Virus genome (UHGV): UHGV-0234394
DNA: 36,353 nt
Strand: one strand, 5' to 3'
From: a virus
The notes under the pieces are model-generated. The model ran no database searches, had not been told where the DNA came from, and worked only from the letters and a program-made list of their open reading frames with translations. Numbering within the stretch: position 1 is the stretch's first letter; each line of letters opens with the position of its first letter. Positions 159 through 8,097 of the stretch are shown one piece after another. A program made the translations under genes and the position numbers.

Positions 159-1163
159 TTAATCCCCCGTGGACACTGCGTGGACACTTACGCCACCTTT
201 CAGCGGATTAAGGGCCACCGCATCCTGCAGGTAATCCGGTGCAAAATGCGCATATGCCATTGTTTGCTGAATGGTTGCGTGACCAAGAATCTTCTGAAGC
301 GCAATAATGTTTCCTCCGTTCATCACAAAATGGCTGGCGAACGTATGCCGCAGCACATGTGCAGCCTGGCCTTTTGGTAAATCGGGCTTAACTCTTTTCA
401 GCGCCAGGCAGAATTCCCGGTACTTCACCTCAAACAAACCGCCTGTTTCTCTGGTTTTGATCGCCTCACAAACTGCCTGCGAAATTGGCACTGTTCTCTT
501 CCGGCCATTTTTGGTTTCAAGAAACGTTACACGGTTATGAACTATCTGTTCACCACGAAGCTTACAAGCTTCACTCCAGCGCGCCCCTGTGCTTAAACAC
601 AAAAGCGCAACACGCCAGTAGTCGCCCTCCAGTGTATCGAGCAATAGCGCCACTTCCTTCTGTGACAGGAACGCCATTTCTCGTGGAGATACATAAAGAA
701 TAGAAATTCCCCTTACTGGATGTTCTGCATCCCAAAGACCTATTTTTTTCAGCACGGTAAACATTCCGGATAACCGATTCATGTACCTGTTAGCAGATGA
801 CGGTTTCAATCCTTCAGCTATCTTTTGAGAACGCCACGCGATAATTTTCAGCTTATCAAGATCCACAGCCTGCATATCAGCGCCAAGCTCATTGATTATG
901 TTGCGCAGTTGTTTTCGGTCTTCTTCCGCCTTACGCCTGTGCTGGCCGTGATACATCCACCACAACTCAAGCAAATCATTTAGCGTTCGACGATCACGGT
1001 AGCCCTGTATATATTCCCGCTTTTCAGCGTTCGCCATGATGTAGCGTTCAGTGGCCACCGCTACCGATTTTTTGTCAAATACCTTACGCACGCGCTTTCC
1101 CTTGCGTCCGTTCGGCCTGATGTCCAGCAAATAACGACCATCTTCGAGCTTCTTAATCGACAT
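159..1163 (-). CDS. int: tyrosine integrase (P2 Int family)
   Basis: Track ORF 159..1178; C-terminal region has the tyrosine-recombinase signature (HVLRHTFASH ... LGH ... Y); start moved to the ATG preceded by GGAGG (protein begins MSIKKLEDG). Confidence 0.9.
   Translation of the reverse strand: MSIKKLEDGRYLLDIRPNGRKGKRVRKVFDKKSVAVATERYIMANAEKREYIQGYRDRRTLNDLLELWWMYHGQHRRKAEEDRKQLRNIINELGADMQAVDLDKLKIIAWRSQKIAEGLKPSSANRYMNRLSGMFTVLKKIGLWDAEHPVRGISILYVSPREMAFLSQKEVALLLDTLEGDYWRVALLCLSTGARWSEACKLRGEQIVHNRVTFLETKNGRKRTVPISQAVCEAIKTRETGGLFEVKYREFCLALKRVKPDLPKGQAAHVLRHTFASHFVMNGGNIIALQKILGHATIQQTMAYAHFAPDYLQDAVALNPLKGGVSVHAVSTGD
169..193. repeat. candidate attL core (gtggacactgcgtggacacttacgc), overlapping the last codons of int
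   Basis: About 22 of 25 positions shared (one 2-nt gap) with 35173-35195; contains an internal tandem GTGGACAC motif. Confidence 0.5.
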
Positions 1164-1259
1164 TACGAAGCCCTCCAATGAACCGCTCTACAATTTCTCC
1201 AGCCTCTTTCCAGCAATAATCAGACCAGACAAAAAGCAGGTCTAACCAGTTTTCTGGCC

Positions 1260-1580
1260 TCAGCGGGATAATTTTTGGATTGTTTCGGTTGAAACGCGAT
1301 CTCCCTCCGAATTGCAGGAACCATCAAGAGAGAGAGCCGGAGAAATTTGCCCGACCTCCGGCATCGTTTCATCTGTTGATAACCAATAAGCATACTTCTT
1401 AAATTTAGGGTGTTTCGTAACCTTAAGTAAGGCACCCTCTGTTACTTGCTTCCCCCTCACCTCATAGTTAGTTACCGTCCCATAAGGCAGCCCAACACAA
1501 TCCGCAAACTCCTGGCGGGTCATACCTTCTGCTTCACGAATCAGGCGAAATTTTTCACCCATGCTTGACAAAGATGCCAT
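1260..1580 (-). CDS. C: immunity repressor, P2 C-like
   Basis: Product resembles P2 C (GLPYGTVTNYE, KFKKYAYWLSTDE, GQISPALS); same strand as int and divergent from cox as in P2; start at the internal ATG giving MASLSSMGEK is my choice and is uncertain. Confidence 0.8.
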   Translation of the reverse strand: MASLSSMGEKFRLIREAEGMTRQEFADCVGLPYGTVTNYEVRGKQVTEGALLKVTKHPKFKKYAYWLSTDETMPEVGQISPALSLDGSCNSEGDRVSTETIQKLSR

Positions 1581-1693
1581 ATCGGGCATATCCTCCATCG
1601 CAACATGCCACATCGGGCACAAACATAAAAGCACTCAAATAAGCCGATATAAGCCATTTTGAGCCATTCGAACGAATTAGGGAGATTACCACA
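1581..1693. promoter_or_regulatory. C/cox divergent switch region with direct repeats (candidate operators)
   Basis: ATCGGGCA direct repeat at 1581-1588 and 1611-1618; three 10-bp phased repeats AAGCCGATAT/AAGCCATTTT/GAGCCATTCG at 1641-1670 just upstream of cox. Confidence 0.4.
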
Positions 1694-1981
1694 ATGAGCG
1701 AATCAGAGCTTGGGGGGTTCATTCAGGTAGCACCATATCCACTTGAAGCGGTGCCATATCAACTATTCGCCAAGATGATCGGCCGCAAGGAATCCACAGT
1801 CAGAACCATGATTGACGCAGCAAAGCTACCGACAATTGATTTTGTGAAACCAGGTTCAGTAAAGACGCGTGCATCAGAAAACTGGGTATATCTGCCAGCA
1901 TTTAACGAAGGCATGCGCAAAGCGTTTTTTGAGCAACCGAAAGAACGCCGCGACGCATGGTTGTTGTGGCTGGGACTTTAG
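1694..1981 (+). CDS. cox: Cox-like excisionase / early-promoter regulator
   Basis: 95 aa; strong resemblance to P2 Cox (WVYLPAFNEG, DAWLLWLGL at the C-terminus); SD GGGAGA upstream. Confidence 0.85.
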   Translation: MSESELGGFIQVAPYPLEAVPYQLFAKMIGRKESTVRTMIDAAKLPTIDFVKPGSVKTRASENWVYLPAFNEGMRKAFFEQPKERRDAWLLWLGL

Positions 1982-3535: not shown

Positions 3536-3739
3536 ATGGCAATTAAGCATTTTCCTGTCGTTCGTTTTACCTCCAGAGGGCGTGAATACGAAGTCGACGA
3601 ACGCCTGATTACCACAATCGACAAACACCGTTCAGAAAAGGATGCACATCACATCTATCTCACTGACGGCACTTACTTCTGCGCCACGAATGTGGTGCGG
3701 GTGAACCTTATCCGACAGGTACAGGAGTCACGCAGATGA
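3536..3739 (+). CDS. hypothetical protein (67 aa)
   Basis: Track ORF with GGAGG 7 nt upstream of the ATG. Confidence 0.55.
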   Translation: MAIKHFPVVRFTSRGREYEVDERLITTIDKHRSEKDAHHIYLTDGTYFCATNVVRVNLIRQVQESRR

Positions 3740-3981
3740 CCATTCTGGACTATATCGCCGCCAATCCGGGGTGTAGCGGTGGAGAAATCGCCGCAGCACT
3801 GAATACCCCAACCACAGCCATTAATGCGGAGTTACGCCGACTCTGGCGCAGCGGTTCAGTCATAAGAAAAGAGCGCAAAACAGGCGGTCGCTTTTCTTAC
3901 CAGATAAACCCGATGCCGTTCGGGTGCGGCAATCCACTTACCAACATGTTTAACCAGCTACTGAAGGAAGCCAGAGCATGA
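3736..3981 (+). CDS. hypothetical protein (81 aa), possibly DNA-binding
   Basis: Track ORF; start overlaps upstream stop; helix-turn-helix-like impression only. Confidence 0.5.
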   Translation: MTILDYIAANPGCSGGEIAAALNTPTTAINAELRRLWRSGSVIRKERKTGGRFSYQINPMPFGCGNPLTNMFNQLLKEARA

Positions 3982-4277
3982 GCGCCATCAACCACCAGGA
4001 ATTACGCGAACTGGCGACTGACCTGCAACGAATGGCAACGCCTCAAAAATTACTGGCGTTTCGCGCAATGCTCTCGCCGTCTGCTGTGCTGGCGCTGCTG
4101 GATGAGCTGGAGCACGCCAGAACCACACCTCTCGCCATTCGCCTGACGCTCCGTCATGAAATCGAGGATTTCTGCGCGACGTTGGAGGCGCCAGGCGAAC
4201 CGGAAACGCCAGAAGCAATACAGCAAGAGCTGCTGCAACGCATTGACAAGGTTTTTGATTTTTTTCTGAACCACTAA
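3978..4277 (+). CDS. hypothetical acidic protein (99 aa)
   Basis: Track ORF; ATGA start/stop overlap with the upstream gene. Confidence 0.5.
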   Translation: MSAINHQELRELATDLQRMATPQKLLAFRAMLSPSAVLALLDELEHARTTPLAIRLTLRHEIEDFCATLEAPGEPETPEAIQQELLQRIDKVFDFFLNH

Positions 4278-4289
4278 GAAACCAGAACA

Positions 4290-4600
4290 TGCACACACAA
4301 AAAAACCGCTTGCCATGCCGCAATCAGTCAGGTTACATTTCCGCTGCACCTCACAAAACGGGTGCCGGGTTTCGCAGCCTGCTGACTACACAAGCGCACA
4401 ACCGCGCCAGCGGTTTTTTTGTGCGTACTGTATTGCCACGTTTTTTTCGCGTCAGAATTATGGCGGGGCGTACGGGGCCGACTTCGGTCGGGCCGGGTTC
4501 TTGTGTAGCCGGTACTGCGAACCTCGTACGTCTCGCCACCCACAGTTTCGCAGCTCTGGATGGTGAGTTTTCACAACTTACTACACAAGGGGCCACACCA
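4290..4600 (+). other. structured non-coding region (candidate regulatory RNA or terminator cluster)
   Basis: No credible ORF; perfect 15-bp inverted repeat cacaaaaaaaccgct (4296-4310) / agcggtttttttgtg (4409-4423); T7 runs; GC hairpin with a TTCG loop at about 4476-4496. Confidence 0.35.
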
Positions 4601-4830
4601 TGGCAAACCGCAAACCACACCGCGCTATCGCGGAGCGTCGTCACATCCAGACTGAAATCAACCGCAGACTTTCCCGCGCATCACGCGTCGCGCAAATCAT
4701 GCACATCAATATGCTGCATGAGCGCAGCCACGCACTATCAAACATTTATTCCGCCTCTGTTTTCAGCTATCTGGCGGATGATCTGCACGAGCTTCAACAG
4801 CTCATCCAGCAGCAAAACAAACTCCATTAA
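4600..4830 (+). CDS. hypothetical basic protein (76 aa)
   Basis: Track ORF. Confidence 0.45.
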   Translation: MANRKPHRAIAERRHIQTEINRRLSRASRVAQIMHINMLHERSHALSNIYSASVFSYLADDLHELQQLIQQQNKLH

Positions 4831-4902
4831 CTCCTGTTCCGGGCCTTTCCTGCACCTTGCGGCGGGAGGCCTTCGCACATCTGTAACAAGAGGATTGCCG
4901 CA

Positions 4903-5268
4903 ATGATTCTCGCCAACGACTTTCTTGAATACCTGCTCAACACAGAACGTGATCTTGCCGCTCGCGTGCGTGATCGTTATGACATGTACCTGAAATCCCT
5001 GCCTGTACCGCAGCTCGCTGACGGAAAGATTGTTATTGATGGTCGCTACATGATTGACAGCCACGAGGGAAATTACAGGCTTTACCGCATTGAAGGTGGC
5101 ACCCCGTCCGTTATTGGCATTTACCAGCGCCCATCCTCTGCAATCGTCGATGTGATTGCCGACAGCATCCGCATCACACATCGCCATGCCGACACAGAAG
5201 ACACCATGCTGGAAATTCAGCGGCTGGCTACAGTCTGCCGCGACACCCTGAATGGCATGACGAAGTAA
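4903..5268 (+). CDS. hypothetical protein (121 aa)
   Basis: Track ORF with AAGAGGA upstream; immediately precedes gene A. Confidence 0.5.
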   Translation: MILANDFLEYLLNTERDLAARVRDRYDMYLKSLPVPQLADGKIVIDGRYMIDSHEGNYRLYRIEGGTPSVIGIYQRPSSAIVDVIADSIRITHRHADTEDTMLEIQRLATVCRDTLNGMTK

Positions 5269-5274
5269 ATCACT

Positions 5275-8097
5275 ATGACGGCAGAGTACATCAGGGACTG
5301 GCAACAACCGCGCCACGCAGTGGGGCGTGAAGGAACGGGGATCCCCGCTCCTGAATCCGCGCTTTCCTCCTGGCTGGATGCCTACCGGGTAGAGAACGAG
5401 CACCGCCAGGAAATGGCTGATGCGGCGTTCTCCGCAACGCCGCTGGGCAACCTGATTAATAAAAGCCTGGACGCACAGGAAAAACAGGACAAAACCATCA
5501 CACTGGCAGGAGATGCCAGAAAACAGGCACGCGGCGCGGTGGATGAAGCCATGGCCTCGCTGCGCCTGCTGCCGTCCTATCTGCGCGATCCGCTTATTCG
5601 CCACCTCTCCTTCCTGTGCAAAAAACAGGAAGCCGATCGTCAGAAAGGCAAAAAGAGCTGGCAGGCTGAACGCTACGCGCGCGGAAACCTGCGCAAAATA
5701 TTCGAACGTCTGGAGCGCACCGATCACCGCTGGCTGACACAGGGTTATCGCTCCCTTGCCGGACGCGAACGCCTGGACGATTTGCTTTACCTGCCGCAGC
5801 TCAACAAACACCAGATACAGACACTGGCCACCATGACGGCGGCGATGTTCAGCAGCACCTTCGAAAAACTCTGCGATGGCTTTGGCGCGACCGATGGCGA
5901 ACTGACCATGGATGTAACACTGAAGGCGTATCAGATGCTGGCCCGCATGGCGTTACACCTGCACGCCATGCCTCCACATTATGACGCACTGACAACAGAC
6001 AAAGACCGGAGGAACGAACCGGACACGGAGCTGCTGCCGGGCGCAATCCTTCGCCTGACCTGTGCAGAATGGTGGAAACGCAAACTGTGGCTGTTACGTT
6101 GCGAGTGGAGAGAAGAACAACTCCGCGCCGCCTGTCTGGTTTCCAGAAAAACATCGCCCTATCTGAGCCAGGACGCGTTAAGCGAGTTTCGCGCACAGCG
6201 CGAGAAAACACGCGATTTCCTGAAAAGTTTCATGCTGGAAAATGAAGACGGGTTCACGATTGATCTCGAGACGGTGTATTACGCGGGAGTAAGTAACCCG
6301 GTTCACCGTAAGGCAGAAATGATGGCCACCATGAAGGGGCTGGAACTTCTGGCCGAAGCCCGTGGCGACAAAGCGGTGTTTCTGACTGTCACCTGCCCGT
6401 CAAAATACCACGCCACAACAGAGAACGGTCATCCGAATCCCAAATGGAACGGGGCCACCATGCGCGACTCCAGCGATTACCTGGTTAACACGTTTTTTGC
6501 GGCGGTCCGCAAAAAACTGAACCGCGACGGTCTTCGCTGGTATGGCATCCGCACGGTGGAGCCTCACCATGACGGCACCGTGCACTGGCATATGATGGTC
6601 TTTGCTCATCCGGAAGAAATCGACAGCATCGTGGCCATCACCCGCGATATTGCCATTCAGGAAGACCGCCACGAGCTGGGCAATGATATTACTCCGCGCT
6701 TTAAGGCGGAGTATGTCGACGGCTCAAAAGGCACACCAACCAGCTATATCGCGACCTACATCGGAAAGAACCTGGACAGCCGCGCCGTGGATGGCATCGA
6801 CCCGAAAACGGGCAAGCCACGCGTTGACCACGAAACCGGAAAATCAATGGCCGAGAGTGTGGAGCGCGCCATCGGCTGGGCGCGCCTTCATCGGGTCCGC
6901 CAGTTCCAGTTCTTTGGCATCCCCTCCCGTCAGGTGTGGCGTGAACTGCGCCGCCTTGCCAGCCAGATGGCACGCAACCCGGAAGGCCCGCAACGACTGA
7001 AAGATGACGCAATGGATGCGGTACTCGCTGCCGCCGATGCCGGGTGTTTTGCCACCTACATTGAAAAACAGGGCGGCGTACTTGTTCCACGCAAAGACTA
7101 CCTGATTCGCACCGCCTACGACCTCGCAGATGAGCTGAATGATTACGGCGAACAGAGCGTACAGATTTACGGGATCTGGTCACCACTCATCGGGGAATCC
7201 TCCCGTGTGTGCACGCATCCGGATAACTGGAAACTGGTAAGACGTAAACCGGAAACGGAAGACAGCGCCCGCGAAAATGGTTTTGACCTTCAGGGCGGCC
7301 CTGCCGCCCCTTGGACTCGTGGCAATAACTGTCCCCGTGTACAGGAAACGGACAACAACGGGACAGAACAGCCGGAAGAACGGCCAGCACCGTGGCCGCA
7401 GCTCCCTGACGGCGTTGATGTGGATGAATGGATGCGCTCACTGAAACGGCACGAACGCCGGGCGCTGATGCGTTCGCTTCGTGACAAACAGGCAAAAAAC
7501 AGCAGTGATGAAATGCAGAGCTGGACACAGAGCCGCAAACAGCAGCGGCCTTTGCCTGATAACCACGAATTACTCGCTAAAGAATGGCGGGAGTCTGCTG
7601 AATCTCTCGGCCTGCATATCGGTGAACAACAGATGCAGCACCTGTTACGGGGCGGCAGTCTGTACGTTGACGGCAGCATCATTGCACCGCAGGGATTTGA
7701 AATTGTACGCAAACCGGATACTCGCCCGGACAGCCGAATCACGCAGCTCTGGCAGCGCCTGAGCCGTAATCACGGCGTAAGTAGCACGGAGATCCGCCAT
7801 AACCCGGTCGCCAGCTATCTGGAACAGCTGGAGGCATCAGACCCCGAAGCCGCCGCACGCCTGGCATCCACACTTCAGCAGGACCAGAACACCATGAAAA
7901 CACCCGTTACCGTGCTTTCTGACATGCTGCGCGCCATCCGCGACGCAGAGCACGCACAGAGAATCAGTGAAACCACTGAACGCGCCCGCCGCAAAGCAGA
8001 CCTGCTGCGGGGTGGCCTGACCAGTGGAAACAAAAAACAGACAGAAACGGGACTCACGAATCCCGTAAATGAGCAAAAAACGCGCAGCGATATATGA
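5275..8097 (+). CDS. A: rolling-circle replication initiator endonuclease (P2 gpA family), long form of 940 aa
   Basis: HUH-type motif in TVHWHMMVFAH and paired tyrosines in YIATYIGK; position after the early genes as in P2. Confidence 0.85.
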   Translation: MTAEYIRDWQQPRHAVGREGTGIPAPESALSSWLDAYRVENEHRQEMADAAFSATPLGNLINKSLDAQEKQDKTITLAGDARKQARGAVDEAMASLRLLPSYLRDPLIRHLSFLCKKQEADRQKGKKSWQAERYARGNLRKIFERLERTDHRWLTQGYRSLAGRERLDDLLYLPQLNKHQIQTLATMTAAMFSSTFEKLCDGFGATDGELTMDVTLKAYQMLARMALHLHAMPPHYDALTTDKDRRNEPDTELLPGAILRLTCAEWWKRKLWLLRCEWREEQLRAACLVSRKTSPYLSQDALSEFRAQREKTRDFLKSFMLENEDGFTIDLETVYYAGVSNPVHRKAEMMATMKGLELLAEARGDKAVFLTVTCPSKYHATTENGHPNPKWNGATMRDSSDYLVNTFFAAVRKKLNRDGLRWYGIRTVEPHHDGTVHWHMMVFAHPEEIDSIVAITRDIAIQEDRHELGNDITPRFKAEYVDGSKGTPTSYIATYIGKNLDSRAVDGIDPKTGKPRVDHETGKSMAESVERAIGWARLHRVRQFQFFGIPSRQVWRELRRLASQMARNPEGPQRLKDDAMDAVLAAADAGCFATYIEKQGGVLVPRKDYLIRTAYDLADELNDYGEQSVQIYGIWSPLIGESSRVCTHPDNWKLVRRKPETEDSARENGFDLQGGPAAPWTRGNNCPRVQETDNNGTEQPEERPAPWPQLPDGVDVDEWMRSLKRHERRALMRSLRDKQAKNSSDEMQSWTQSRKQQRPLPDNHELLAKEWRESAESLGLHIGEQQMQHLLRGGSLYVDGSIIAPQGFEIVRKPDTRPDSRITQLWQRLSRNHGVSSTEIRHNPVASYLEQLEASDPEAAARLASTLQQDQNTMKTPVTVLSDMLRAIRDAEHAQRISETTERARRKADLLRGGLTSGNKKQTETGLTNPVNEQKTRSDI

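Follow-up and report, generated by a model that had tools for sequence, protein, structure and literature searches.

The window is a stretch of 36,353 nucleotides (nt) from UHGV virus genome UHGV-0234394, and represents a P88-like temperate phage of the P2 family, with 99.8% identity over 1.8 kb to Xuanwuvirus P884B11 and ~94% identity to coliphage P88 (Peduoviridae). The region considered here, 4290-4600, is situated between the plus-strand open reading frames (ORFs) 3978-4277 and 4600-4830, in the rightward early lytic operon and 5' of the replication gene A. An earlier note, made from the letters alone, had pointed to a perfect 15 base pair (bp) inverted repeat, two T7 runs and a GC-rich TTCG hairpin at this position between early ORFs, all of which are present in the sequence, and had proposed a covariance-model search. 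When the whole window was scanned against Rfam at curated thresholds, exactly two matches were returned, both inside the region, on the plus strand and full length: isrK (RF01394, 64.1 bits, cut-off 50, model positions 1-77) and C4 (RF01695, 83.2 bits, cut-off 45, model positions 1-87 of 87). The region is very probably an IsrK-C4 RNA immunity cassette, homologous to seqA-CI-seqC of P4 and working like c4/immI of P1, that gates an anti-repressor gene and probably the replication gene. Its parts, including the two arms of the inverted repeat, are as follows.

4293-4313 (+), left arm of the inverted repeat (core 4296-4310), just 5' of the IsrK promoter-like site and overlapping its -35 by 4 nt
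4310-4339 (+), sigma-70 promoter-like site TTGCCA-18-TACATT, found by consensus scan, with a predicted start at ~4346, base 1 of the isrK match
4346-4420 (+), IsrK-like small RNA (sRNA) gene, equivalent to P4 'seqA' and made up of hairpin 1, hairpin 2 with target a1, single-stranded target b1 and a terminator
4369-4378 (+), target a1, in IsrK hairpin 2, complementary to C4 patch a'
4386-4394 (+), target b1, in IsrK single strand, complementary to C4 patch b'
4400-4420 (+), intrinsic terminator from terminator prediction, AACCGC-GCCA-GCGGTT (hairpin 4400-4415) followed by T7
4406-4426 (+), right arm of the inverted repeat, comprising the terminator loop, the 3' strand of the terminator stem, the U7 tract and GUGCGU
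4427-4455 (+), U-rich spacer between IsrK and C4, containing the second T7 run (4441-4447)
4456-4543 (+), C4-type antisense RNA gene, equivalent to P4 CI
4461-4477 / 4522-4538 (+), closing stem of C4
4478-4491 (+), UUCG hairpin of C4, CCGAC-TTCG-GTCGG, its first internal hairpin
4492-4513 (+), second hairpin of C4, the loop of which carries b'
4500-4508 (+), C4 patch b' (CUUGUGUAG), in the loop of the second hairpin
4515-4521 (+), C4 patch a' (CUGCGAA), a single strand adjoining the second hairpin
4545-4554 (+), target a2 (GTTTCGCAGC), 3' of C4, complementary to a'
4581-4593 (+), target b2 (CTACACAAG; core 4581-4589, plus GG by two G-U pairs), complementary to b'

The first T7 run (4414-4420) is the tail of the IsrK intrinsic terminator, and this run, the TTCG hairpin and the right arm of the repeat are all accounted for by the isrK and C4 matches. 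Each of the three proposals of the earlier note (cis-acting RNA element, internal terminator or antiterminator, small RNA) was partly right, as there are two Rfam sRNA genes, an intrinsic terminator at 4400-4420 and cis target sites on the mRNA. Two things escaped it: the C4 loops and their two covarying target sets are more informative than the 15-bp repeat, and the unit as a whole belongs to a known kind of phage immunity cassette, which most likely controls the downstream gene. Folding, which the same note had suggested as a check, gave a structure for 4285-4610 (326 nt) that was better than those of all 100 shuffles (z = -4.6), and a tRNA/tmRNA scan of the window returned no match. The IsrK promoter-like site ends 7 nt 5' of 4346, and its -35 and -10 are invariant in 46 versions of the cassette. 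The second T7 run was considered as a second terminator and rejected, being without an adequate hairpin and reading CTTTTT in most relatives. It falls in the spacer of another promoter-like site, TTGCCA-17-AATTAT at 4433-4461 (+), the predicted start of which would fall in the C4 closing stem, on its 5' side.

Targets a1 and a2 are direct-repeat copies, as are b1 and b2, and each C4 patch is complementary to two copies. The predicted duplex energy with C4 is -32.3 kcal/mol for the upstream targets and -31.5 kcal/mol for the downstream targets, and the extended b2 duplex covers the Shine-Dalgarno sequence AAGGGG, 7 nt 5' of the ATG at 4600. In a read-through RNA starting at 4346, a1/b1 are predicted to pair in cis with a'/b' (minimum free energy (MFE) -107.1 kcal/mol). 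The 3' tail of C4, after a tRNA-like stem, is CCCA, and the closing stem together with CCCA looks like the acceptor end of a tRNA, which agrees with the maturation by RNase P known for c4 and CI.

The product of the ORF that begins at 4600 matches Pfam PF25738 'Derepression' (32.5 bits, cut-off 27) and shares 29% identity over 66 residues with the epsilon protein of P4 (E 4e-9), while its close relatives are named 'derepression protein' by NCBI. The ORF at 4600-4830 thus encodes a homologue of epsilon, the derepression (anti-repressor) protein of P4. Its position directly behind the cassette is observed and, by homology, it is most likely the translation of this anti-repressor gene that the cassette controls.

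Relatives of the region were collected with the epsilon-like protein (80 IMG/VR loci and three genomes) and with a C4 sequence pattern (120 further loci); a scan of genome contigs with the epsilon-like protein gave only three loci, and IMG/VR was used for diversity. An alignment (A2) of the homologous 336-nt region holds 50 distinct versions, and variation among the relatives is concentrated in the six short a/b sites, which are hypervariable. Between a1/b1 and a'/b', standard pairs are formed in 100% of 800 cells of this alignment, with both-sided changes in 11 of the 16 pairs (188 cells) and a covariation score of 0.662, compared to 0.12 in shuffles (0/500 reach the observed score) and 0.05-0.16 in slid-partner controls. 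Pairing of a'/b' with a2/b2 is almost as complete (98.3% of cells), with 11/16 compensatory pairs (180 cells) and a score of 0.630. Inside IsrK and C4, 96.5% of the helix cells are paired across the 50 versions and eight pairs are compensatory; the three C4 helices, 99.9-100% paired, hold seven of these eight pairs with two-sided changes, and in the UUCG hairpin four of five pairs covary. There are 20 distinct C4 recognition regions, in which a-types and b-types occur in varied combinations, and cognate duplexes have a mean energy of ~ -31 kcal/mol against ~ -19 kcal/mol for non-cognate ones. Because all three copies of each site co-evolve, the alignment provides strong evidence that the pairings are functional and that the a/b sites set specificity.

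Two relatives carry unusual arrangements of these sites. In one locus (L076, 238-338) the C4 has a 17-nt insertion that forms an extra hairpin, the loop of which bears a b' of another type (AUUCUUUGCUCU, as in the L051 group) beside its own b', so that the locus may represent either a C4 with two specificities or a chimera of the assembly. A second viral contig (L189) has two complete isrK-C4-epsilon-like cassettes in tandem, at 3586-3915 and 4265-4591, with differing a/b types.

The pattern of variation also bears on the possibility that the region is protein-coding, in which case a 205-aa ORF at 4289-4906 (+), an 'ash family protein', would be a real gene and the RNA features incidental. The earlier note had seen no credible coding capacity here; mechanically this does not hold, as the ORF crosses the region, but the evidence argues that it is not a real gene. 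The frame is open across the region and in 52/56 relatives, compared to any open frame in only 8/5000 shuffles, its end overlaps the next ORF in an ATGA, it has a marginal match to Pfam PF10554 Phage_ASH (26.5 bits, cut-off 26), and RefSeq uses the name 'ash family protein' in a relative. However, the stretch that the Phage_ASH profile matches is the one with isrK, C4 and a2/b2, and the profile also matches the old P4 'cI' ORF (59.7 bits), while the P4 immunity factor is described as RNA in two secondary sources (PMC4825925; PMC3632133). Variation in the region is compensatory and of RNA type, the frame is broken by a 2-nt insertion in one relative (L028) and by stops in 4/56, and the start of the ORF would lie 5' of the cassette's promoter-like site. 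Over the stretch that the ORF shares with the epsilon-like gene, there is a third-position excess in the epsilon frame (71 vs 40 and 39), and the most variable positions are second codon positions of the 205-aa ORF. A coding role is thus highly improbable and was rejected, 4289-4906 being regarded as a translated RNA region.

The same RNA-type variation, broken frames and codon-position pattern are not those of a protein-coding sequence for PF10554. What is called PF10554 or 'ash family protein' is a translation of the isrK-C4-target region in the window (4289-4906, +), in L206 (2502-3119) and in P4 (L002, 8168-8584, -), which suggests that the Pfam Ash family is largely a translated non-coding RNA, though with an unusually open frame.

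Taking the region as an RNA cassette, its action may be pictured in the following way. C4 would be excised from operon or read-through transcripts, the likely enzyme being RNase P, as with c4 of P1 and CI of P4, and would pair in trans with a2/b2, so that translation of the epsilon-like gene would be blocked and expression of gene A limited in turn by polarity or termination. IsrK would be made when transcription stops at its terminator, and its decoy sites a1/b1 would titrate C4 and relieve the block, in agreement with Gifsy-1, in which IsrK acting in trans turns on the anti-repressor. The hypervariable a/b sites would set the immunity specificity, each phage silencing only its own type.

The output could instead be of the P4 style, in which pairing of C4 with a1/b1 and a2/b2 in the nascent RNA would cause premature termination and leave gene A (5275-8097) silent in immune cells. 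This overlaps with the scheme above and has somewhat less than an even chance of being correct. The gene order is as in P4, with the cassette 5' of epsilon and of the replication gene alpha, and a strong intrinsic terminator within the cassette stands between the early promoter region and gene A; in P4 itself, according to the same two secondary sources, CI RNA causes termination through seqA and seqC (PMC4825925; PMC3632133). On the other hand, b2 overlaps the Shine-Dalgarno in every version and in P4, which implies at least a translational step, and no terminator of the intrinsic type is predicted between b2 and gene A, the sole one being the IsrK terminator upstream.

Some points weigh against the cassette as described or against the way it is supposed to act. 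Homologues are the source for the RNA ends, for processing by RNase P and for the translational effect, and the output may be translational repression (the P1 model), premature termination (the P4 model) or both. The IsrK promoter is a consensus match only (9/12), and promoter-like sites are no commoner in the region than in shuffles. Lastly, in the related system of Gifsy-1, the authors read the C4 region as a translated orf45 coupled to the anti-repressor (PMC4825925).

The nearest known counterpart is in P4, where the same two Rfam matches are found in the same order and orientation 5' of epsilon (isrK 8692-8615, C4 8507-8420, epsilon 8175-7888), and where a promoter-like sequence, TTGCCT-18-TATAGT, stands directly 5' of the isrK match with the geometry seen in the window. 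We take this to be the place of the promoter that the P4 literature names PLE. P4 has the same layout of a1/b1, a'/b' and a2/b2, with b2 lying on the AGGAGG Shine-Dalgarno of the next ORF, and in both P4 and the window the cassette is followed by an epsilon homologue (29% identity) and then a replication gene. The two differ in that the element here is a complete, helper-type P2-like phage with gpA, whereas P4 is a satellite with the alpha primase. The gap between IsrK and C4 is 35 nt here and ~107 nt in P4, and the epsilon-like gene directly follows b2 here, whereas P4 has another ORF in between, presumably the kil/eta genes of the P4 literature. P4 also lacks the left arm of the inverted repeat, and its recognition sequences differ from those of the window. 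In the literature, equivalence with the P4 immunity region is stated directly, and similar systems are reported in P1, P7, N15 and some lambdoid prophages (PMC3632133; PMC4825925).

With immI of P1 and P7 the window has in common an antisense RNA with two exposed patches, processed in P1/P7 and putatively so here, a comparison made both in the literature and by the Rfam families C4 and c4-a1b1. There are likewise two target sets, and one set falls on the ribosome-binding site of an anti-repressor operon (icd-ant in P1/P7). In those phages c4 blocks ant translation at the ribosome-binding site, and differences in patch sequence underlie P1/P7 heteroimmunity (PMC12197685). The anti-repressor is epsilon-like here and Ant in P1/P7, and the upstream targets in the window, unlike those of P1/P7, are inside a terminated sRNA of the IsrK type.

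The Gifsy-1 locus of Salmonella (isrK-orf45/STnc1160-anrP) resembles the arrangement predicted for the window in its IsrK sRNA with a leaky terminator, and in a read-through transcript with a stable processed RNA complementary to IsrK. Supplying IsrK in trans increases translation of the anti-repressor that follows by a factor of more than 100, prophage induction requires IsrK, and the processed, stable RNA STnc1160 is found 3' of IsrK (PMC4825925). In lysogens, expression of IsrK and of the C4-like STnc1160 is high in every condition tested. Translation of the Gifsy-1 anti-repressor depends on interplay with IsrK and on alternative cis structures, and the read-through RNA of the window is predicted to pair likewise. 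Gifsy-1 is lambdoid, however, its anti-repressor is of another family than that of the window, and it has a short orf45 before the anti-repressor gene where the corresponding frame here continues to 4906. For the versions in lambdoid prophages of E. coli, DNA similarity to the window starts at or within ~14 nt of 4346, excluding the promoter and the left arm.

Among 14 diverse viral contigs, C4 scores at or above the Rfam cut-off in all 14, and isrK and/or c4-a1b1 (RF03163) is found 5' of it in 11. An ORF starts 46-58 nt 3' of C4 in the diverse viral contigs; eight of ten such ORFs scanned have a Pfam match, seven being of anti-repressor type (P22_AR_C/ORF6N, AntA, KilA-N, Bro-N) and one RadC. 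The window cassette follows this rule of C4 and then an anti-repressor, with an anti-repressor of the epsilon type. One viral contig with a distant isrK-C4 cassette (L092) has, in addition, a strong RT-15 RNA match (RF03018, 173 bits) at 5856-6047 (-).

The inverted repeat itself pairs 4296-4310 (CACAAAAAAACCGCT) with 4409-4423 (AGCGGTTTTTTTGTG), 98 nt apart, and with two mismatches it extends to 21 nt (4293-4313 / 4406-4426). None of 1000 dinucleotide-preserving shuffles of 4290-4600 had a perfect inverted repeat longer than 12 nt, compared to the 15 observed, and the repeat is not due to chance. The 15-mer was tested as a repeated protein-binding site, and no further copies occur in the window. 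The left arm forms the 5' border of the conserved cassette, and relatives with different upstream genes can be aligned from ~4296 on. Conservation across relatives, another check proposed in the earlier note, is borne out: the repeat is retained in all P88-like versions, and also in diverged lineages in which gpA is only 31-58% identical. The arm was present in all seven gpA-linked modules checked (gpA 31-98% identity) and absent in all seven modules without gpA, and P4 and distant cassettes have no left arm. In one lineage both flanks of the repeat have changed together, from CAC/GTG to CACGT/ACGTG.

The inverted repeat is a lineage-specific addition of the P2-like versions that may let transcripts started upstream bypass the IsrK terminator. 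In RNA from the early promoter, the left arm would pair with the 3' half of the terminator and its U tract and so abolish the terminator hairpin; this pairing would lock the IsrK domain and its decoy sites, and transcription would continue through C4 and the epsilon-like gene into gene A. RNA begun at the promoter of the cassette itself would be without the arm, terminate, and yield the IsrK sRNA. In equilibrium prediction the arm-to-arm helix is mutually exclusive with the terminator hairpin and energetically competitive: the terminator-stem probability is 0.82-0.97 for RNA from 4346 and 0.00-0.02 for RNA with the left arm, and the arm-to-arm helix has a predicted probability of 0.97 in RNA starting upstream. 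Over the 50 versions, the mean terminator-stem probability is 0.85 without the left arm and 0.00 with it, and with the U tract withheld it is 0.72 and 0.19, respectively, with two exceptions. For the arm-containing RNA, the MFE structure combines the long helix with a natively folded C4, and a fold in which IsrK pairs in cis with C4 is 11.6 kcal/mol less favourable.

Bypass of the terminator by this route is only a tentative reading, drawn from equilibrium prediction and a confounded correlation, and several observations speak against it. When the RNA extends up to 4415, the decision point, two relatives (L113 and L185) retain the terminator, and in kinetic terms the adjacent 5' strand has the advantage over an element competing for the 3' strand of a terminator. 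Fourteen of the 21 repeat pairs never vary, compensatory change being seen in only two pairs (six cells, one lineage), and P4 and the checked non-gpA modules work without the repeat. The A tract of the left arm (A7, ~ -47 to -41 from the predicted start) also fits the position of a promoter UP element, which lies at about -47 to -41 from the start.

This last point leads to a possible alternative, with perhaps one chance in a few, that the repeat is without RNA function, the left arm being an UP element, -35-flanking DNA or an insertion relic, and its match to the terminator tail a by-product. Besides the placement of the A7 tract, covariation in only two of the 21 repeat pairs fits this, as do the terminator-loop base facing the arm, which varies C/A/T regardless of pairing, and the homologous cassettes of P4 and other phages that have no arm. 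Against it stand the perfect 15-mer, not reached in 1000 shuffles, the retention of the arm, with its two-sided flank change, in lineages where gpA is ~31-58% identical, its strict co-occurrence with the P2-type early operon (7/7 vs 0/7), and the prediction that the complete arm, once available, strongly affects the terminator in each of the 50 versions. A stem for RNase III is an alternative to terminator bypass.

If the repeat does serve terminator bypass, it could be a start-site-dependent switch, added when a free-standing IsrK-C4 cassette was built into an early operon of the P2 type; such operons would appear to be without an N- or Q-type antiterminator. Together with at least 20 interchangeable a/b types, in an element that a third of complete E. 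coli genomes carry, this would amount to a combinatorial RNA immunity code shared by P2-like helpers and P4-like satellites, a speculative view that we consider possible but rather doubtful. Were both the switch and the shared code real, there would be scope for cross-silencing between P2-like helpers and P4-like satellites.

The cassette was found in 1801 of 5426 complete E. coli genomes, in 1162 of them at full length. No annotation is present under 29 of 40 sampled matches, and the remainder are covered by annotated proteins: 'ash family protein' or 'hypothetical protein' in close relatives, and 'Rha family', extending into the downstream gene, in distant lambdoid ones. In phage P88 (L001, NC_026014) the annotated hypothetical coding sequence SF19_gp13, at 5033-5221 (-), is opposite the isrK-C4 non-coding region (4978-5281) and is probably a spurious gene call. 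In a contig titled Vagococcus sp. WN89Y (L005), from a Gram-positive genome assembly, there is a P88-like prophage segment of E. coli type with 88% identity to the window, most likely through contamination of the assembly.

The kind of element is already known and curated, through the Rfam families C4, isrK and c4-a1b1 and the literature on P4, P1 and Gifsy-1. No description of the cassette in P88-like phages of the P2 family was found in the literature, and what is new here is the unannotated cassette in a P88-like prophage, a well-supported specificity code, and the lineage-specific inverted repeat. Marking the region as two RNA genes with their targets would correct the annotation. P2-like helpers carry the same unit of RNA immunity and epsilon-type derepression as the satellite P4, and this shared unit bears on helper-satellite sensing and silencing, and on the induction of prophages with non-cleavable C-type repressors. 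The three-way covariation also provides a ready table of specificity types for heteroimmunity.

The genes around the cassette, from profile scans of the ORFs, are as follows.

159-1178 (-), integrase
1260-1634 (-), helix-turn-helix repressor (C-type)
1694-1981 (+), Cox
3978-4277 (+), Ead/Ea22-like ORF, with a profile score below threshold
4600-4830 (+), epsilon-like ORF, 76 aa
4903-5268 (+), orf121, phrog_3237, with the function label unknown
5275-8097 (+), replication endonuclease gpA (gene A), which ends the rightward run of small ORFs

No ORF in the region or adjoining it received a name from NCBIfam. A LexA box, as a possible input for induction, was not found near the cassette, the sole weak match in the window being inside gene A. 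The order of genes is cassette, epsilon-like gene, orf121 and gpA. The product of orf121 has no similarity to that of P4 orf151, which has the equivalent position in P4; orf121 is conserved, and sits between the epsilon-like gene and gpA.

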